The notes below the pieces were generated by a model. That model was not told the origin of the DNA and did not search any database. It was given only the letters and a program-made list of their open reading frames with translations. Positions 7,126 through 60,184 of a stretch of 64,000 nucleotides of DNA are shown here, piece after piece. Made by a program: the position numbers and the translations under genes. Position 1 is the first letter of the stretch; each line of letters starts with the position of its first letter. Location: positions 1 to 64,000 of IMG/VR virus record IMGVR_UViG_3300037882_004081. One strand, 5' to 3'. This DNA is from a virus.

Positions 7126-7653
7126 CTACAGATTGACGTAGTCTTCCTTCTGTTTCGACAGGACATTACCAACCGCATGGACGGGTGCACCGATGATAAA
7201 GACGGTAGTGCTGACCACGACCGCAACTGGACCAACCACTGGCCAATGCCCCATCCCACCACCGATGATAGCACTGGTGTTTCCAATGTTCCTACCAACC
7301 CTTTGGCCAACATTCCTGTCTTGGCTTGCGCACGAACACATCGCCAGTAGGCACGATATGACCGGCATGCATCCGGCCATCTCCTTGATCCGTGCCGAGA
7401 ATGTCGGGCTGACGGAAACACAATGGCGTCTATCCCATTCTTCCCTGCCGATCGACTCCAGGTAAGCCTTACCACGTTGCCCATGAGATTCCTTGCACTC
7501 ACCCGACACCCTACCGGAGCCGTCTCTTGCCACCGTCCTGCACCGATATCCACGTTTCGACTTGCACACCGGGCAGTCGACGGACTGGACGGCGGCGGTA
7601 AGAGCCCATCCGGAAATTGGCTCAAGCGGGATGGGGACTCCGTGGCGTTTCAT
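7126..7653 (-). CDS. Zinc-finger protein with in-frame lipoprotein/glycine-zipper-like C-terminal half
   Basis: CPVCxxxxGxxC...H motif, then VISCLLAMCSC and a Gly-rich hydrophobic stretch. Confidence 0.5.
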   Translation of the reverse strand: MKRHGVPIPLEPISGWALTAAVQSVDCPVCKSKRGYRCRTVARDGSGRVSGECKESHGQRGKAYLESIGREEWDRRHCVSVSPTFSARIKEMAGCMPVISCLLAMCSCASQDRNVGQRVGRNIGNTSAIIGGGMGHWPVVGPVAVVVSTTVFIIGAPVHAVGNVLSKQKEDYVNL

Positions 7654-23604: not shown

Positions 23605-23633
23605 ATTTTACCACACAAAGTGACACTTGTCAA
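23605..23633 (-). promoter_or_regulatory. Sigma70-type early promoter
   Basis: TTGACA-17 nt (TGTGG)-TAAAAT; -35 box overlaps the toxin stop codon. Confidence 0.88.
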
Positions 23634-23947
23634 GTCCCCCCTCTCTTCCACAGGCTGTCGTACTTCGCGTGGGGTCCGATGAAGAACCACACGTAGTCGT
23701 TCCCATCCTTCTTCGCGACTGCCCGATATTCGAAGTTGATCGAAATGCGCCACATACCGGGGATGTGCTTGAGTTCCCGGAAATCAGTCGATGACGGGTC
23801 CTGTTTCCACTTCGCGTACACCTTCCGCGCCTGAGCCTGCACCCGCTCGGGCAGTTCAGTGAACTGCTTGTCGAATTGGCGCGTCTTGGACTCCAGAAGC
23901 TCCGGCTTCCAGTCAAGTACCCGTATGATGGCGGCGGCGGCGGACAC
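23630..23947 (-). CDS. RelE/ParE-superfamily toxin (putative mRNA interferase) with an N-terminal extension
   Basis: TRQFDKQFTELPERVQAQARKVY..WKQDP..., WRISINFEYRAV, WFFIGPHAKYD. Confidence 0.82.
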   Translation of the reverse strand: MSAAAAIIRVLDWKPELLESKTRQFDKQFTELPERVQAQARKVYAKWKQDPSSTDFRELKHIPGMWRISINFEYRAVAKKDGNDYVWFFIGPHAKYDSLWKRGGT

Positions 23948-24201
23948 TAATGCTGTTGGAATGTTACTGAGTCTCCTTCAGTGCCAAGATCATTTTTCCA
24001 ACCCGGCATAAACTCACCAGCCAGTTTCACCAGTTCGGCTGGATTGTTAGTGAAAAACGTGACGGTCGGGTTGTCGGTGTGGTGCGGGTCCCACTCAAAG
24101 TCGGTCGCCAGACCGAGTTGCTTCGCCTTGACGAACAAGCCTTTGGCAATGTCGTCGGCGGGTTCTCCAAGAGATTCTTGGATTCGTTTGGTCAGGCTCA
24201 T
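23947..24201 (-). CDS. Small hypothetical protein coupled to the toxin gene
   Basis: Start MSLTKRIQES; its TAG stop shares a base with the toxin GTG. Confidence 0.65.
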   Translation of the reverse strand: MSLTKRIQESLGEPADDIAKGLFVKAKQLGLATDFEWDPHHTDNPTVTFFTNNPAELVKLAGEFMPGWKNDLGTEGDSVTFQQH

Positions 24202-24214
24202 GGGGATAGGTAGA

Positions 24215-24340
24215 TTACTGGCAGGCTTCACAGCTTCCGCTTCCGTCGTCCACCGGGCAGGAACGCTCGGGGAGTGGCTCATTGAAGTCGTCGTCGGTGA
24301 TTTCGGCGGTGGGCTCTTGAGTGTTTGGATCAGTCATCAT
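24215..24340 (-). CDS. 41-aa acidic mini-protein resembling an RNR large-subunit C-terminal redox tail
   Basis: MMTDPNTQEPTAEITDDDFNEPLPERSCPVDDGSGSCEACQ; own TAGGT motif upstream; in frame with the NUMOD3 ORF. Confidence 0.55.
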   Translation of the reverse strand: MMTDPNTQEPTAEITDDDFNEPLPERSCPVDDGSGSCEACQ

Positions 24341-24967
24341 GACACCTAGTTCGTGCCCAGCCGCTATCATTCTAAAGGCTTCCCTGGTGGCGTTGTTAGT
24401 GCGCATAACTTTACTCATCTTCTCACGAGACTCTTTGGAATGCACACGCCCTACACCAGCAGCGGCTATCTTCTCCCGGTGCTCCCGTGGCAAAGTACGA
24501 CCGGAGAGCTTAGCGCTGACTTTGACGCTTATTTTCGCTCTGGTTTCTTCTGAACATGGGTGACCCTTAAGCGAATTACCGATTTTCTCGCGTTGTTCCG
24601 GCGACAAAATACGCCCCCTGAAAGCTCGTCCGATCCTATCCCGAGTCTCTTGAGAAGCGGGCGCTCTATTCCTTCGTGCGTCACGCATCTTTGCTCTGGT
24701 TTCTTCGGAAGCAGGCGCTCTATTCCTTTGTGCAGCACTTAATTTCGCCCGAGTTTCTTCGGAGATTGGTGGTCTAGGAATATGCGCCCTAGCCCTTTGT
24801 GCGAGCTTCATTTTTTCGCGGGCTTCCTCAGTATGGGGTTTACGCACCCGAGCTTTCTGTGCTGCACTCATTCTCGCCCGAGTTTCTTCCGTGTGGGGTT
24901 TACGCACCCGAGCTTTTTGTGCTGCACTTAGTTTCTTCCGAGTTTCTTCAGAAATTGGGGGTTTCAC
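24215..24967 (-). CDS. NUMOD3-repeat DNA-binding protein (homing-endonuclease-derived, no nuclease domain)
   Basis: About ten (H/I/A)SEETRxK(L/M/I)S repeats; more AT-rich codons than neighbours. Confidence 0.8.
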   Translation of the reverse strand: MKPPISEETRKKLSAAQKARVRKPHTEETRARMSAAQKARVRKPHTEEAREKMKLAQRARAHIPRPPISEETRAKLSAAQRNRAPASEETRAKMRDARRNRAPASQETRDRIGRAFRGRILSPEQREKIGNSLKGHPCSEETRAKISVKVSAKLSGRTLPREHREKIAAAGVGRVHSKESREKMSKVMRTNNATREAFRMIAAGHELGVMMTDPNTQEPTAEITDDDFNEPLPERSCPVDDGSGSCEACQ

Positions 24968-25578
24968 TTGGCGATGGCTTGGACGATGGCGAGAAGCTCC
25001 TTGGCGGCAAATGGTTCACCGGTCATGAAGATGACTTCGCCCTTCACGATGCGATATTTGGCTCCCGGAGAAACCCTAGCTTCGCGTGGTCTCTCGGCGA
25101 GTTTGGCCCTTTGAGCCGGAAGCGCCAATACGGAAGCAGCACCAAATGCTTGCTTGCACTGCTCGCCAGTCATATCTCTCGCCGACACCAGCAGGGTGTC
25201 AGTGATGCCGTTATTGTCGACCAGAAGCTCCACCTTCCCACCACCGTCGGTGAGTCTGGTTTGCTCGCTGATTGGGAGCCGTGCCAGATACTTGGCAGCT
25301 GGATAGTTGGCGATGACGAGTTCCGGGAGAATCTGGCGGCGTCCGATCTGTTCGAACTTGCTCACGGTCGCTGGGGTCAAAATCGGGTTGTTGGCGTCAT
25401 CAGCGATCGCGGCGACCGTATACCCGAAGTCGTCGATCAGTTTCACGACAATCTCCCCGGCTCTGACCCAGGCTTTGATGCCTTGGGTAAACACTTCCCC
25501 AAGTTCTCTCACCAAGTCTTTGGGACGAATGACGCAATCGTTGTTGTCGAGCGGAAGTAGTGATGTTGGTAGTGACAT
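24964..25578 (-). CDS. Hypothetical phage protein
   Basis: Clean ORF downstream of a promoter; GTGA-coupled to the NUMOD3 gene. Confidence 0.7.
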   Translation of the reverse strand: MSLPTSLLPLDNNDCVIRPKDLVRELGEVFTQGIKAWVRAGEIVVKLIDDFGYTVAAIADDANNPILTPATVSKFEQIGRRQILPELVIANYPAAKYLARLPISEQTRLTDGGGKVELLVDNNGITDTLLVSARDMTGEQCKQAFGAASVLALPAQRAKLAERPREARVSPGAKYRIVKGEVIFMTGEPFAAKELLAIVQAIAK

Positions 25579-25638
25579 ATGGATAGTTGGTTGCGATGAC
25601 AAGAAAAGTGACGCACTATACAGTTGTCACCAGCCTAC

Positions 25639-25667
25639 ACTATACCATAGCTTCTAACTCTTGTCAA
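25639..25667 (-). promoter_or_regulatory. Sigma70-type early promoter
   Basis: TTGACA-17 nt (TATGG)-TATAGT. Confidence 0.85.
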
Positions 25668-57707: not shown

Positions 57708-58483
57708 CATTCTCATCCCGCATCCTCATCGGACACGACAAGAAGTGGTTCCACGCGCTCACGCTTCAGGATCTCATCCTTTACGGTGAACGTCCAGTCC
57801 TCACACCGCAGGATGATCTTGAAAACCGCTTTGCAATGGCGGGTTTGCACGACTACAAGCAGGCACTCGCGATCACCGTTGAGTGGTATGAACGCACTAT
57901 GCCGGTGCTGATTTTCCATGAGCTTGCCGGTACCACCAGCACCGATGCGATTGACCTACAGTATGGGGAATCCAACACCCCCGAAATCAAGTTCTCACGG
58001 TCGATCCGTCTCCCCGCTTCCATTAAACAGGACCCGCTCAAGCGCAGGTGGACTCCCGAGGGAATGGTGGCTCGCCAGAACGGTGAGATTTACCTCAGCC
58101 CGTATCACCTCGCCCAGATGAACTACACACCGGGCGTAGGTGACTTCGTGATCTATCGGGCCGAGGTTTACGAGGTGACGAGCGTACAAGCTCAGCCGAC
58201 CGACTACTGGTTGCAAACTGGCATCCCACTCCACGTTCAAATCATGATCAAAGGAGCGACACTTCCAAATGACACCAGCTGTCTGGAGTGTTTGGCACTC
58301 GAAAGCCCTCCTGGCCTTCAGTGCGACGCTGAGGGAGTCCCGGCTATGCAACAACTTGCGCCCATTGACCCCTTCCCGGCTTCACCCCCAGGCAACCAGT
58401 CTCCGGTTGCCCCCGTGTCCACCATCACTCCGCTGGTGTCCGGGCCACTGGACGTTGGCCCGTACGATCCGCAGGACATCTAA
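57704..58483 (+). CDS. Neck / head-closure protein, T4 gp14-like
   Basis: IDLQYGES...FSRSIRLPA, YTPGVGDFVIYRAEVYEV...YWLQ. Confidence 0.7.
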   Translation: MTFSSRILIGHDKKWFHALTLQDLILYGERPVLTPQDDLENRFAMAGLHDYKQALAITVEWYERTMPVLIFHELAGTTSTDAIDLQYGESNTPEIKFSRSIRLPASIKQDPLKRRWTPEGMVARQNGEIYLSPYHLAQMNYTPGVGDFVIYRAEVYEVTSVQAQPTDYWLQTGIPLHVQIMIKGATLPNDTSCLECLALESPPGLQCDAEGVPAMQQLAPIDPFPASPPGNQSPVAPVSTITPLVSGPLDVGPYDPQDI

Positions 58484-58932
58484 CGAGCCCGTGCGGCACG
58501 AAGGAGTTCCTTGATGCGTGGTTCTGGCTTCCAGTAGTTTGGACCTTTCGTGACCTTTCCGTTTCCATCGTAGGACGCACTCCCGTCCTCGTTGAGTTTG
58601 GAGGCGTTGGACTCCATGATGATTTCGAGAATCTCGTTGAGTGGGAGCCCGAATTTCGCGGCTTCGCTGTGAGCGTACACGCACAGGTCGCCCAACAGGT
58701 CACCAATTTCAACGAGCAGGTCCAATTCCTGTTCATCTTCCAGTACCCCAGCAACCGCACGGCTGTCCAAAATGTCGTCAATTTCATCGACTTCCCCGTG
58801 GAGCGTCTTGGCGAGTCCGGTCAGACGGGTACGCCAGTCCTCATTCAGTGCCGAGATGGTGGGGTATTCGGCAGTAGGCAAGCGGTACATCTGGTTGAAG
58901 CCACCACACGATTCAAGGAGTTGTTTCGTCAT
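58480..58932 (-). CDS. MazG-like all-alpha NTP pyrophosphohydrolase
   Basis: EVDE, EIGDLLGDLCVY, IMESNASKL..DG...GKVTKGPNYWKPE. Confidence 0.9.
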   Translation of the reverse strand: MTKQLLESCGGFNQMYRLPTAEYPTISALNEDWRTRLTGLAKTLHGEVDEIDDILDSRAVAGVLEDEQELDLLVEIGDLLGDLCVYAHSEAAKFGLPLNEILEIIMESNASKLNEDGSASYDGNGKVTKGPNYWKPEPRIKELLRAARAR

Positions 58933-58954
58933 AGACCATATGAGAAAACACAAA

Positions 58955-58984
58955 CGAGGGGCGGGAGTTGCCCCCCGCCCCTCG
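58955..58984 (-). terminator. Intrinsic terminator
   Basis: 11-bp stem CGAGGGGCGGG/CCCGCCCCTCG followed by TTTGTGTTTTT on the minus strand. Confidence 0.85.
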
Positions 58985-59005
58985 CACACACCGCACCAAC
59001 GATCC

Positions 59006-60184
59006 TTACGCTTCCGCAAGGATCGAAGCTTCCTCAGCGCTCAGCGCTGCCGCCTTTTCCGGATCACCGGCTTGGAGGTAAAACGCCTTGGCATTTTCGA
59101 ACACCACGTCTTTGTCGGGCTTGACCCCTTCCAGATCGAAGCTGTCGGAGCCGAGCCAGTCACCCACCAGACCGAACAGCCGTGGGGCGAGGTTCGGGGT
59201 GTAGTGGGTGGCGCACTCCGTGGCGATTTGGATGAGTTGGTAGGCCGACAGTCCGATTGGGCAGTTGGCGCGAAGCTTGTGAGGCAGGTCGGTCAGCGTC
59301 ACCACGCCGATTTCGCTGAGTTTCGGGGCGATCACGGCGGCGAGACCGCGACGGATGCTGTTGACCTTCTCGTCTTCACCACGGAGCGAGCGAAGCAGTT
59401 CCATCGCCATCGCGATCGACGCCGAGGTGTGCAGGGACTCGTCGATGCGGCTCTTCAGCATCATGATGCCGTGTTCGTCCACGTGGCGCAGGTACTTCTG
59501 GACGGTGACCGCTGGAGTGAGGTTCTTGGAGCTAGGAACCGGCGAGCGGAACGCGGAACTCATCGCCACCATCCCGTTGGAGCACACTTGGCGCAGCATG
59601 GCAACGAAGCTCTGCATTTGGCCATATCCGTCCATCGGGATTTGAAGCGCCACTTCCGGGTTGTGGTGGTCGCCCTTGCCGAATTCGAAGGAACCCGCAA
59701 CATCCCGGTACAGGATGATCTGTCCGTCGCTGTAGCTGAACGCCTTCAGGAGCCCTTCCTCCATGAGCGGGGCGGCGACCGTTTCCAGACCCTTGGGGCT
59801 GAACCGGCAAGCGCTGTCGCTGGTGACCGCAAGGGCGCGGGTGCCATTTTCCACGGCGACCGTAACCATCACGTCACGACCCTTGTCGTTGCGCTTGGCC
59901 ACAGCGCGTTCGAAGACCTCTTGGTGCGAGAAGAGATTGAAGACCGACTTGGGCACCCCGATCAGTCCGGTCAGGGAAGCCCAAAAGCGGGCGGTCGTGC
60001 TGACCGTCATGCCGCCAATGCCAATGTTGTTGTCGGCGACGACGCGCAGTTCGTTCATCGGAATCCGGGCGAACTCCATCGAGGGAACCAAGCTCCAGTC
60101 GGTCGAGCGGGAGAAGGAGGCTTCCCGGCGACGGGCTGGCTGGATGGTGCGGTCAGGATTGGCGAATGGGTTGTTGGTGCTCAT
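59006..60184 (-). CDS. DUF932-like early protein
   Basis: MLRQVCSNGMV motif; start MSTNNPF; strong codon bias. Confidence 0.7.
   Translation of the reverse strand: MSTNNPFANPDRTIQPARRREASFSRSTDWSLVPSMEFARIPMNELRVVADNNIGIGGMTVSTTARFWASLTGLIGVPKSVFNLFSHQEVFERAVAKRNDKGRDVMVTVAVENGTRALAVTSDSACRFSPKGLETVAAPLMEEGLLKAFSYSDGQIILYRDVAGSFEFGKGDHHNPEVALQIPMDGYGQMQSFVAMLRQVCSNGMVAMSSAFRSPVPSSKNLTPAVTVQKYLRHVDEHGIMMLKSRIDESLHTSASIAMAMELLRSLRGEDEKVNSIRRGLAAVIAPKLSEIGVVTLTDLPHKLRANCPIGLSAYQLIQIATECATHYTPNLAPRLFGLVGDWLGSDSFDLEGVKPDKDVVFENAKAFYLQAGDPEKAAALSAEEASILAEA

Follow-up and report, generated by a model that had tools for sequence, protein, structure and literature searches.

The window, the first 64,000 nucleotides (64 kb) of the 102,728-bp IMG/VR virus record IMGVR_UViG_3300037882_004081, which is estimated to be 55% complete, harbors on its minus strand an open reading frame (ORF) of 250 aa at positions 24215..24967, which begins with GTG and ends ...TDDDFNEPLPERSCPVDDGSGSCEACQ-TAA. 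This GTG overlaps the stop codon of an upstream 212-aa ORF of unknown function at 24964..25602 (-) in the arrangement GTGA, so that the two are translationally coupled; the upstream ORF matched no Pfam or PHROG family and had no relatives in viral contigs. A strong sigma-70-like promoter (TTGACA-17-TATAGT with TG, 11 of 12 matches) lies ahead of the 212-aa ORF at 25639..25667 (-), while no promoter-like site was found inside the 250-aa ORF. Downstream, in the same operon, an 84-aa ORF at 23950..24201 (-) starts 13 nt after the stop codon of the 250-aa ORF. The IMG gene call at this locus is a 130-aa protein (denoted P0122 here) starting at an internal TTG, and misses both the full ORF and the internal boundary described below.

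The first 209 residues of the ORF (24341..24967, minus strand) constitute a basic array of NUMOD3 repeats. Pfam detects NUMOD3 (PF07460) with an E-value of 6.3e-23 in six stretches, above the family cut-off, and we count ten repeats by eye. Two blocks of the array are recent DNA-level tandem duplications with periods of 60 and 54 nt, and eleven helices are predicted in this part by AlphaFold2. Relatives of the array are mostly group I intron or free-standing endonucleases, in line with the occurrence of NUMOD3 modules in GIY-YIG and HNH homing endonucleases of the I-TevI type. However, no GIY-YIG or HNH nuclease domain was found by the Pfam search, PHROG homing-endonuclease families match only in their DNA-binding part, the repeats start at residue 3, and the open frame extends only 16 codons further upstream.

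The last 41 codons plus the TAA stop, at 24215..24340 (-), encode a segment of a very different nature, MMTDPNTQEPTAEITDDDFNEPLPERSCPVDDGSGSCEACQ, with the C-terminus ...DDDFNEPLPERSCPVDDGSGSCEACQ. It contains 11 D+E and one K+R and has a pI of 4.05, while the preceding 209 residues contain 54 K+R and have a pI of 11.5. AlphaFold2 predicts the segment to be unstructured, giving coil with low confidence. A tandem in-frame ATG ATG (24335..24340, minus strand; 24340-24338 and 24337-24335, residues 210 and 211 of the long ORF) sits exactly at the junction and is a candidate internal start, and the motif TAGGT at 24344..24348 (-) lies 3 nt and 6 nt upstream of the two ATGs. TAGGT is truly recurrent in this phage: of its 87 copies in the record, 14 lie within 15 nt upstream of 130 crude gene starts, corresponding to 10.5% of starts in a 124-gene call against 0.6% of random positions; seven of the 14 are spaced exactly 6 nt from the start, which is the modal spacing, nine are spaced 5-7 nt, and in six of them the TAG is also the stop codon of the preceding gene. 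On the other hand, four of 17 sense-strand intragenic TAGGT copies are followed by an in-frame start, which is about chance level, and no stop codon separates the segment from the array. We also considered whether a frameshift hides a stop at the TAG of TAGGT, but rejected this idea since that frame is closed only 5 codons upstream. An acidic C-terminus ending CxxC-x(1-2) is rare, being found in 1 of 4370 background ORF C-termini. These results confirm what the preliminary description had seen in the sequence, namely, an acidic 41-aa end in frame with basic NUMOD3 repeats of opposite composition, with tandem ATGs preceded by a recurrent TAGGT motif.

At first, this tail appeared to be an orphan. 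A whole-protein homolog search returned 1364 NUMOD3 hits, none with this tail, and the tail is absent from the 120 protein relatives and the 80 viral NUMOD3 loci compared. A search with residues 200-250 among proteins of 137-438 aa gave nothing, because the relatives fall outside that length range; a phmmer search of the last 55 residues against 1.84 billion representatives returned only P0122; and megablast of 10 kb against the phages collection gave no match. However, a length-appropriate search using P0122 as the query identified a MazG-like pyrophosphatase (denoted P0123; PHROG E-value 8e-28) that ends SDDDFNEPLPERTCNLDDDECEACQ, with 19 of 27 residues identical to the tail in the window. 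Pattern and alignment scans of viral and metagenome contigs then recovered about 20 loci (L numbers below) carrying the same module. Stand-alone ORFs of 55 aa occur in L093, L097 and L099, located after MazG-like or DnaB-type genes. Stand-alone ORFs of 35/36 aa (MITEPITL.EEDDDFNEPLPVRTGGCDGEVCESCQ) occur in L102, L103, L105, L107, L110, L113 and L115; in L102 the gene lies between the T7-type scaffold and capsid genes, and the other loci show the same ORF layout. A 34-aa ORF occurs in L109, near a helicase and a Holliday-junction resolvase, and longer proteins carry the module at their C-terminus in L094, L096, L098, L100 and L101. In L094, the gene just upstream of the tail-bearing gene has two NUMOD3-like repeats (E-value 1e-4), suggesting that the fusion in the window arose from such a neighborhood. 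No member was found by an exact-pattern scan of 185,579 prokaryote genomes, and tblastn found none in cultured phages. Four of the five small family proteins tested, not including the window's own tail, weakly match the C-terminal end of phrog_9555, a 53-aa family of unknown function (E-values 0.2-0.8).

The alignments of these sequences indicate an invariant core consisting of DDDF-[ND]-EPLP-x-R followed by C-x(4-8)-C-E-x-C-[QS]-stop. In the window the core lies at 24218..24295 (-) and reads DDDFNEPLPER, then the C-terminus SCPVDDGSGSCEACQ-stop, in which the first Cys is followed by 8 residues and by C-E-A-C-Q at the very end. The 35/36-aa genes are under strong purifying selection: in comparisons between distinct variants, pS is 0.31-0.49 and pN is 0.012-0.024, giving a pN/pS of about 0.03-0.06. 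The start of the stand-alone 36-aa protein (M-I-T-E-P) aligns with M-M-T-D-P at the tandem ATGs in the window, which together with the TAGGT-N6-ATG signal favors an internal start, and 21 of the 41 positions match the stand-alone 36-aa protein of L102. Similarity to the 55-aa type reaches a little further upstream, where REAFRMIAAGHELGV aligns with TEALKEKGVELEV; thus, an in-frame ATG at 24416..24418 (-), residue 184, which would give a 67-aa product, is an alternative start.

We next asked whether the module resembles the C-terminal tail of class I ribonucleotide reductase (RNR) large subunits (NrdA), the preliminary description having proposed a likeness to the tails of class I/II RNR large subunits. 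The look-alike at the motif level is plain, as genuine tails read, for example, ...DDGCESGACKI (E. coli), ...AEDCSSCKL, ...DDEGCDSCSI and ...GAGEDCFACQ, and the segment in the window likewise has a Cys pair (CxxC) within its last ~7 residues after an acidic linker predicted to be flexible (...DDGSGSCEACQ-stop). However, pairwise alignment of the window's own tail to seven RNR tails was no better than that of shuffled sequences (p 0.05-0.57), and the signal appeared only with the family and with better-chosen tails. We collected 54 distinct NrdA tails from marine phage contigs, which typically end ...EExCESCAI or ...DDCESCKL, and used 53 of them after dropping one outlier (L168). In profile-profile comparison by hhalign, the family matches these tails over 17-18 terminal columns, with a P-value of 9e-5 for the whole family and 3.6e-5 for the 55-aa subfamily; the score is 22.4 against 8.8+/-2.2 for 200 column shuffles, none of which reaches it. 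L093 aligned to the NrdA tail of Synechococcus phage MC09 with p 0.0005. Furthermore, the best hit in an unbiased tblastn search of the 36-aa protein against 50,697 phage genomes is the C-terminus of the annotated NrdA of Pseudomonas phage Cygsa01 (...MNTPPVVLKEEAEPQFHQDSGEVCESCQ-stop). Although its E-value of 2 is not significant on its own, the hit covers the full length, the alignment runs end to end with an 8-residue gap, and 0 of 5000 shuffles reach its score. The nearest Pfam-bearing Atlas cluster to the tail consists of PF02867 fragments, but this match is weak (score 0.76).

The PyrE of this phage is 57-65% identical to the PyrE of Verrucomicrobiales such as Roseibacillus, Luteolibacter and Akkermansiaceae MAGs, pointing to this group as the likely host, although this assignment rests on one gene. 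NrdA in this group is class I in its domain make-up (ATP-cone, all-alpha domain and barrel), and its tail reads ...ACS[IL][ED]AMxNGxxCEACQ-stop with three Cys, the same architecture as ...SCPVDDGSGSCEACQ-stop in the window; six of the seven tails examined end CE[AS]CQ, and four of the seven end in the same five residues as the window's tail, CEACQ. Accordingly, the third Cys, which we initially took as an argument against an RNR origin, is a feature of this tail type. hhalign of the family against these tails covers all three Cys, with a P-value of 1.3e-4 and 0 of 200 shuffles reaching the score.

Nevertheless, the similarity to RNR is short, covering only the last 13-18 residues. Profile and phmmer searches of PDB sequences, which include RNRs, found no RNR at E<=10 and nothing significant; the full family HMM, which is dominated by DDDFNEPLPxR, found neither NrdA tails nor free members in eight whole Verrucomicrobial genomes at E<=10; and tblastn of the window's 41 aa, the 55-aa protein and the 34-aa protein against phage genomes returned no RNR. 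The most conserved part of the family, DDDFNEPLPxR, has no counterpart in RNR alpha tails, and the idea that DDDF copies the docking tail of the beta subunit is not supported, since marine phage NrdB tails end ...FSGFKL. In addition, the module is found in replication modules or, in T7-like phages, in the scaffold-capsid interval, and in none of the gene contexts is it next to nucleotide-reduction genes. The 102.7-kb record holds no match to RNR large or small subunits or NrdD (PF02867, PF00268, PF13597), thioredoxin or glutaredoxin. No RNR large-subunit match was found in any of eight carrier records including this one, and no thioredoxin or glutaredoxin in the six searched for them; one of the carrier records is 97% complete.

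Taken together, our favored explanation, in which we have only moderate confidence, is that the 41-residue end belongs to a conserved, unnamed phage family of portable RNR-alpha-tail modules. In this view, the module is an unstructured acidic peptide whose end copies the redox-shuttle tail of class I RNR large subunits, including the three-Cys tail of NrdA in Verrucomicrobiales; in other phages it is made as a free protein of 34-64 aa or appended to enzymes such as a MazG-like pyrophosphatase, while in the window it is joined in frame to a nuclease-less NUMOD3 array, being certainly made as the end of that 250-aa protein and, as likely as not, also made alone from the TAGGT-N6-ATG signal. The C-terminal Cys pair of RNR alpha reduces the active-site disulfide after each turnover and is itself reduced by thioredoxin or glutaredoxin; TCEP works only through this pair, whereas DTT reduces the active site directly (PMC4078304, PMC6459318). 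Since no RNR or redoxin gene was found in the carrier records, the peptide is inferred to act in trans on the host's RNR alpha and/or the thioredoxin or glutaredoxin that recharges it, with the invariant motif as the docking element that would replace covalent tethering. What our analysis demonstrates is the membership of the tail in the family, the existence of stand-alone relatives, the purifying selection acting on them and the resemblance to RNR tails, whereas the target, any electron-shuttling, inhibitory or decoy activity, the direction of the effect (support or inhibition of the enzyme) and separate translation in this phage are inferred. We are almost certain of the family membership and fairly confident that the likeness to RNR tails is genuine, whether by descent or mimicry, but the action on host RNR or redoxins remains tentative; the host NrdA keeps its own tail, so that a benefit from a free copy is not obvious. 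The preliminary interpretation, a free tail that re-reduces or inhibits RNR in trans or decoys host thioredoxin, is thus supported in part: two of the three conditions that could have refuted it, the lack of stand-alone homologs and the lack of similarity to RNR tails, were examined and both came out in its favor, while the suggestion that an RNR of the phage itself, encoded outside the window, lacks its tail is not supported.

Of the alternatives, the one that survives best, although we consider it unlikely, is that the tail is only the C-terminal extension of the NUMOD3 protein, working as an acidic, DNA-mimicking or autoinhibitory tail that folds back on the basic repeats, or as a docking tail that recruits a partner to DNA bound by the array. 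The uninterrupted and translationally coupled ORF, the lack of an internal promoter, the opposite charges, the chance-level frequency of in-frame starts after intragenic TAGGT copies, and the C-terminal fusions in other members (P0123, L094, L100) are consistent with this reading. However, the module exists alone in many phages under strong purifying selection, and therefore has a function that does not depend on NUMOD3; the ATG pair and TAGGT-N6 sit exactly at the module boundary; and simple charge neutralization does not explain an invariant 11-residue motif and three invariant Cys. Less likely still, the module may be a metal-binding (Zn or Fe-S) or hub-docking peptide unrelated to RNR, with convergent likeness to its tails, in which DDDFNEPLPxR would bind some conserved host or phage protein, for example an SSB-tail-binding protein or the packaging machinery, and the three Cys would complete a metal site. 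The invariance of the Cys and the DDDF motif, the replication or capsid contexts, the negative PDB and whole-genome profile searches, and a terminase large subunit ending ...DDDFVEPLPFIMI (L106 and L114) are in its favor. However, the three-Cys spacing and the terminal CE[AS]CQ are themselves found in genuine class I NrdA tails of the likely host clade, the best genome-wide hit of a stand-alone member is an NrdA tail aligned end to end, AlphaFold2 predicts no compact knuckle, and the terminase match may be due to chance, as we estimate that about nine chance matches to the DDDFxEPLP pattern are expected in a six-frame scan of the collection. It is very unlikely that the peptide supplies in trans the missing tail of a tail-less RNR encoded by the phage itself: although split arrangements are known for class II RNR (PMC5704485) and the record is only 55% complete, no PF02867 match was found in this record or in the seven other carrier records. 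Finally, unselected read-through or a chance low-complexity end with no function is contradicted by the matches to P0123 and L102, the invariant core across about 20 loci from unrelated phages and the low base rate of such an end, even though no close relative of this phage was available to measure constraint at this particular locus.

In comparison with known systems, the tail shares with the redox-shuttle tail of class I NrdA an acidic segment, predicted here to be disordered, that ends in a Cys pair one or two residues from the C-terminus, as well as the last five residues and the upstream third Cys of NrdA in the likely host clade, but it is not attached to an RNR barrel, as the ORF holds only NUMOD3 repeats, carries the DDDFNEPLPxR insertion that RNR tails lack, and occurs free or on unrelated proteins in phage records with no RNR match. 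NrdJb, the separately encoded Cys-rich C-terminal domain of split class II RNR (NrdJa+b; PMC5704485), provides a precedent for the electron-delivering part of an RNR being encoded by its own gene; however, this Cys-rich domain is 150-220 aa in fused NrdJ enzymes, has a four-Cys zinc finger plus a Cys pair and belongs to the enzyme's own gene set, whereas the family described here consists of peptides of 34-64 aa predicted to be unstructured, that in the window having 41 aa, three Cys and no predicted fold. In yeast, the CX2C tail of Rnr1 reportedly acts across the dimer, with Sml1 as its competitor (Zhang et al. 2007, PNAS), showing that an RNR tail can work on an active site other than that of its own chain and that a small protein can compete at that step, but there the tail remains part of the alpha dimer and no free tail peptide is involved. 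We found no paper describing free RNR-alpha-tail microproteins in phages; what is new relative to the known redox tail is that it is detached, carries its own conserved motif and is fused here to a DNA-binding array.

A more far-reaching possibility, which we regard as unlikely but which would be of considerable interest if true, is that the module is a portable RNR-tail tag, in which DDDFNEPLPxR docks on the host's RNR alpha or its redoxin and the three-Cys end takes the place of, or competes with, the enzyme's own recharging arm. Phages without an RNR would use it free to retune host dNTP synthesis, and would also append it to other proteins, a MazG-like pyrophosphatase elsewhere and a NUMOD3 array here, thereby tethering the host reductase to nucleotide-pool enzymes or to phage DNA and building a dNTP-supply hub at the replication site.

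RNR turnover depends on a flexible Cys-bearing arm that is normally part of the enzyme. A conserved phage family that carries only that arm, plus an invariant docking-like motif, appears in phage records where no RNR was found. This would be a previously undescribed way for viruses to reach into host DNA-precursor synthesis or the thioredoxin system, and would give a function to a set of unannotated micro-ORFs in marine and soil phages. It also shows that one short linear module can be shuffled between a free gene and fusions to unrelated proteins.

TAGGT is a start-associated signal throughout the record of this phage, for example at positions 7128, 37389, 49897 and 57377 of the window. Fourteen of its 87 copies lie within 15 nt upstream of gene starts, most often 6 nt away. 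In six of these fourteen copies, the TAG is also the stop codon of the preceding gene, suggesting a stop-restart junction motif rather than a classical Shine-Dalgarno sequence. In addition, a near-consensus sigma-70-type promoter (TTGACA-17-TATAGT with an upstream TG) is located at 25639-25667 on the minus strand, ahead of the 212-aa ORF, and it probably drives the operon that contains the NUMOD3-tail gene, the 84-aa ORF and the RelE/ParE-like gene. The latter, at 23630-23947 on the minus strand and two genes downstream in the same strand block, encodes a 105-aa ParE/RelE-like toxin homolog (Pfam PF24732, E-value 8.3e-8).

The NUMOD3 array itself contains two DNA-level tandem duplications, namely, one at 24640-24763 with a period of 54 nt (74% identical, 2.3 copies), and one at 24834-24949 with a period of 60 nt (89% identical, 1.9 copies). 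The array is expanding by recent duplication. In another phage that carries the tail module (locus L094), the gene directly upstream of the tail-bearing gene (L094:4902-5678) has two NUMOD3-like repeats (BLASTP E-value 1e-4 against the protein P0001), which is a possible unfused precursor of the arrangement in this window. As the tail module is fused or adjacent to MazG-like genes in other phages (the MazG-like protein P0123, and loci L093 and L099), it is also of interest that the phage of this window has a weak MazG-like match (PF03819, E-value 0.0015) at 58480-59019 on the minus strand.

At two loci (L106:2242-3837 and L114:1192-2787), a 531-aa open frame with a terminase-large-subunit-like end, as judged from our reading of the sequence alone, finishes with ...DHDDDFVEPLPFIMI, and shares DDDFxEPLP with the core of the family. 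This similarity may be due to chance, since several chance matches to this pattern are expected, or it may hint at what the motif binds. An unannotated ORF of up to 51 aa in the Burkholderia phage vB_FKKS2 (PV072744.1, 6879-7034; L197:1390-1545 in our set of loci), located between the tail tube gene and the next gene, ends with ...VCNFEEGCESCQ at its stop codon. It has the same three-Cys end as the family, but lacks the DDDF motif, and six closely similar Burkholderia phages have it.

The class I NrdA proteins of Verrucomicrobiales that we examined (L236-L243, about 1080-1180 aa) have a three-Cys C-terminal tail, C-x9-C-x2-C-Q, instead of the two-Cys tail of the textbook enzymes, a variant that we did not find mentioned in the papers we read. 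The PyrE of this phage (14561-15241, minus strand) is 57-65% identical to the PyrE of Verrucomicrobiales, including Roseibacillus, Luteolibacter and Akkermansiaceae MAGs, which points to that order as the host group.
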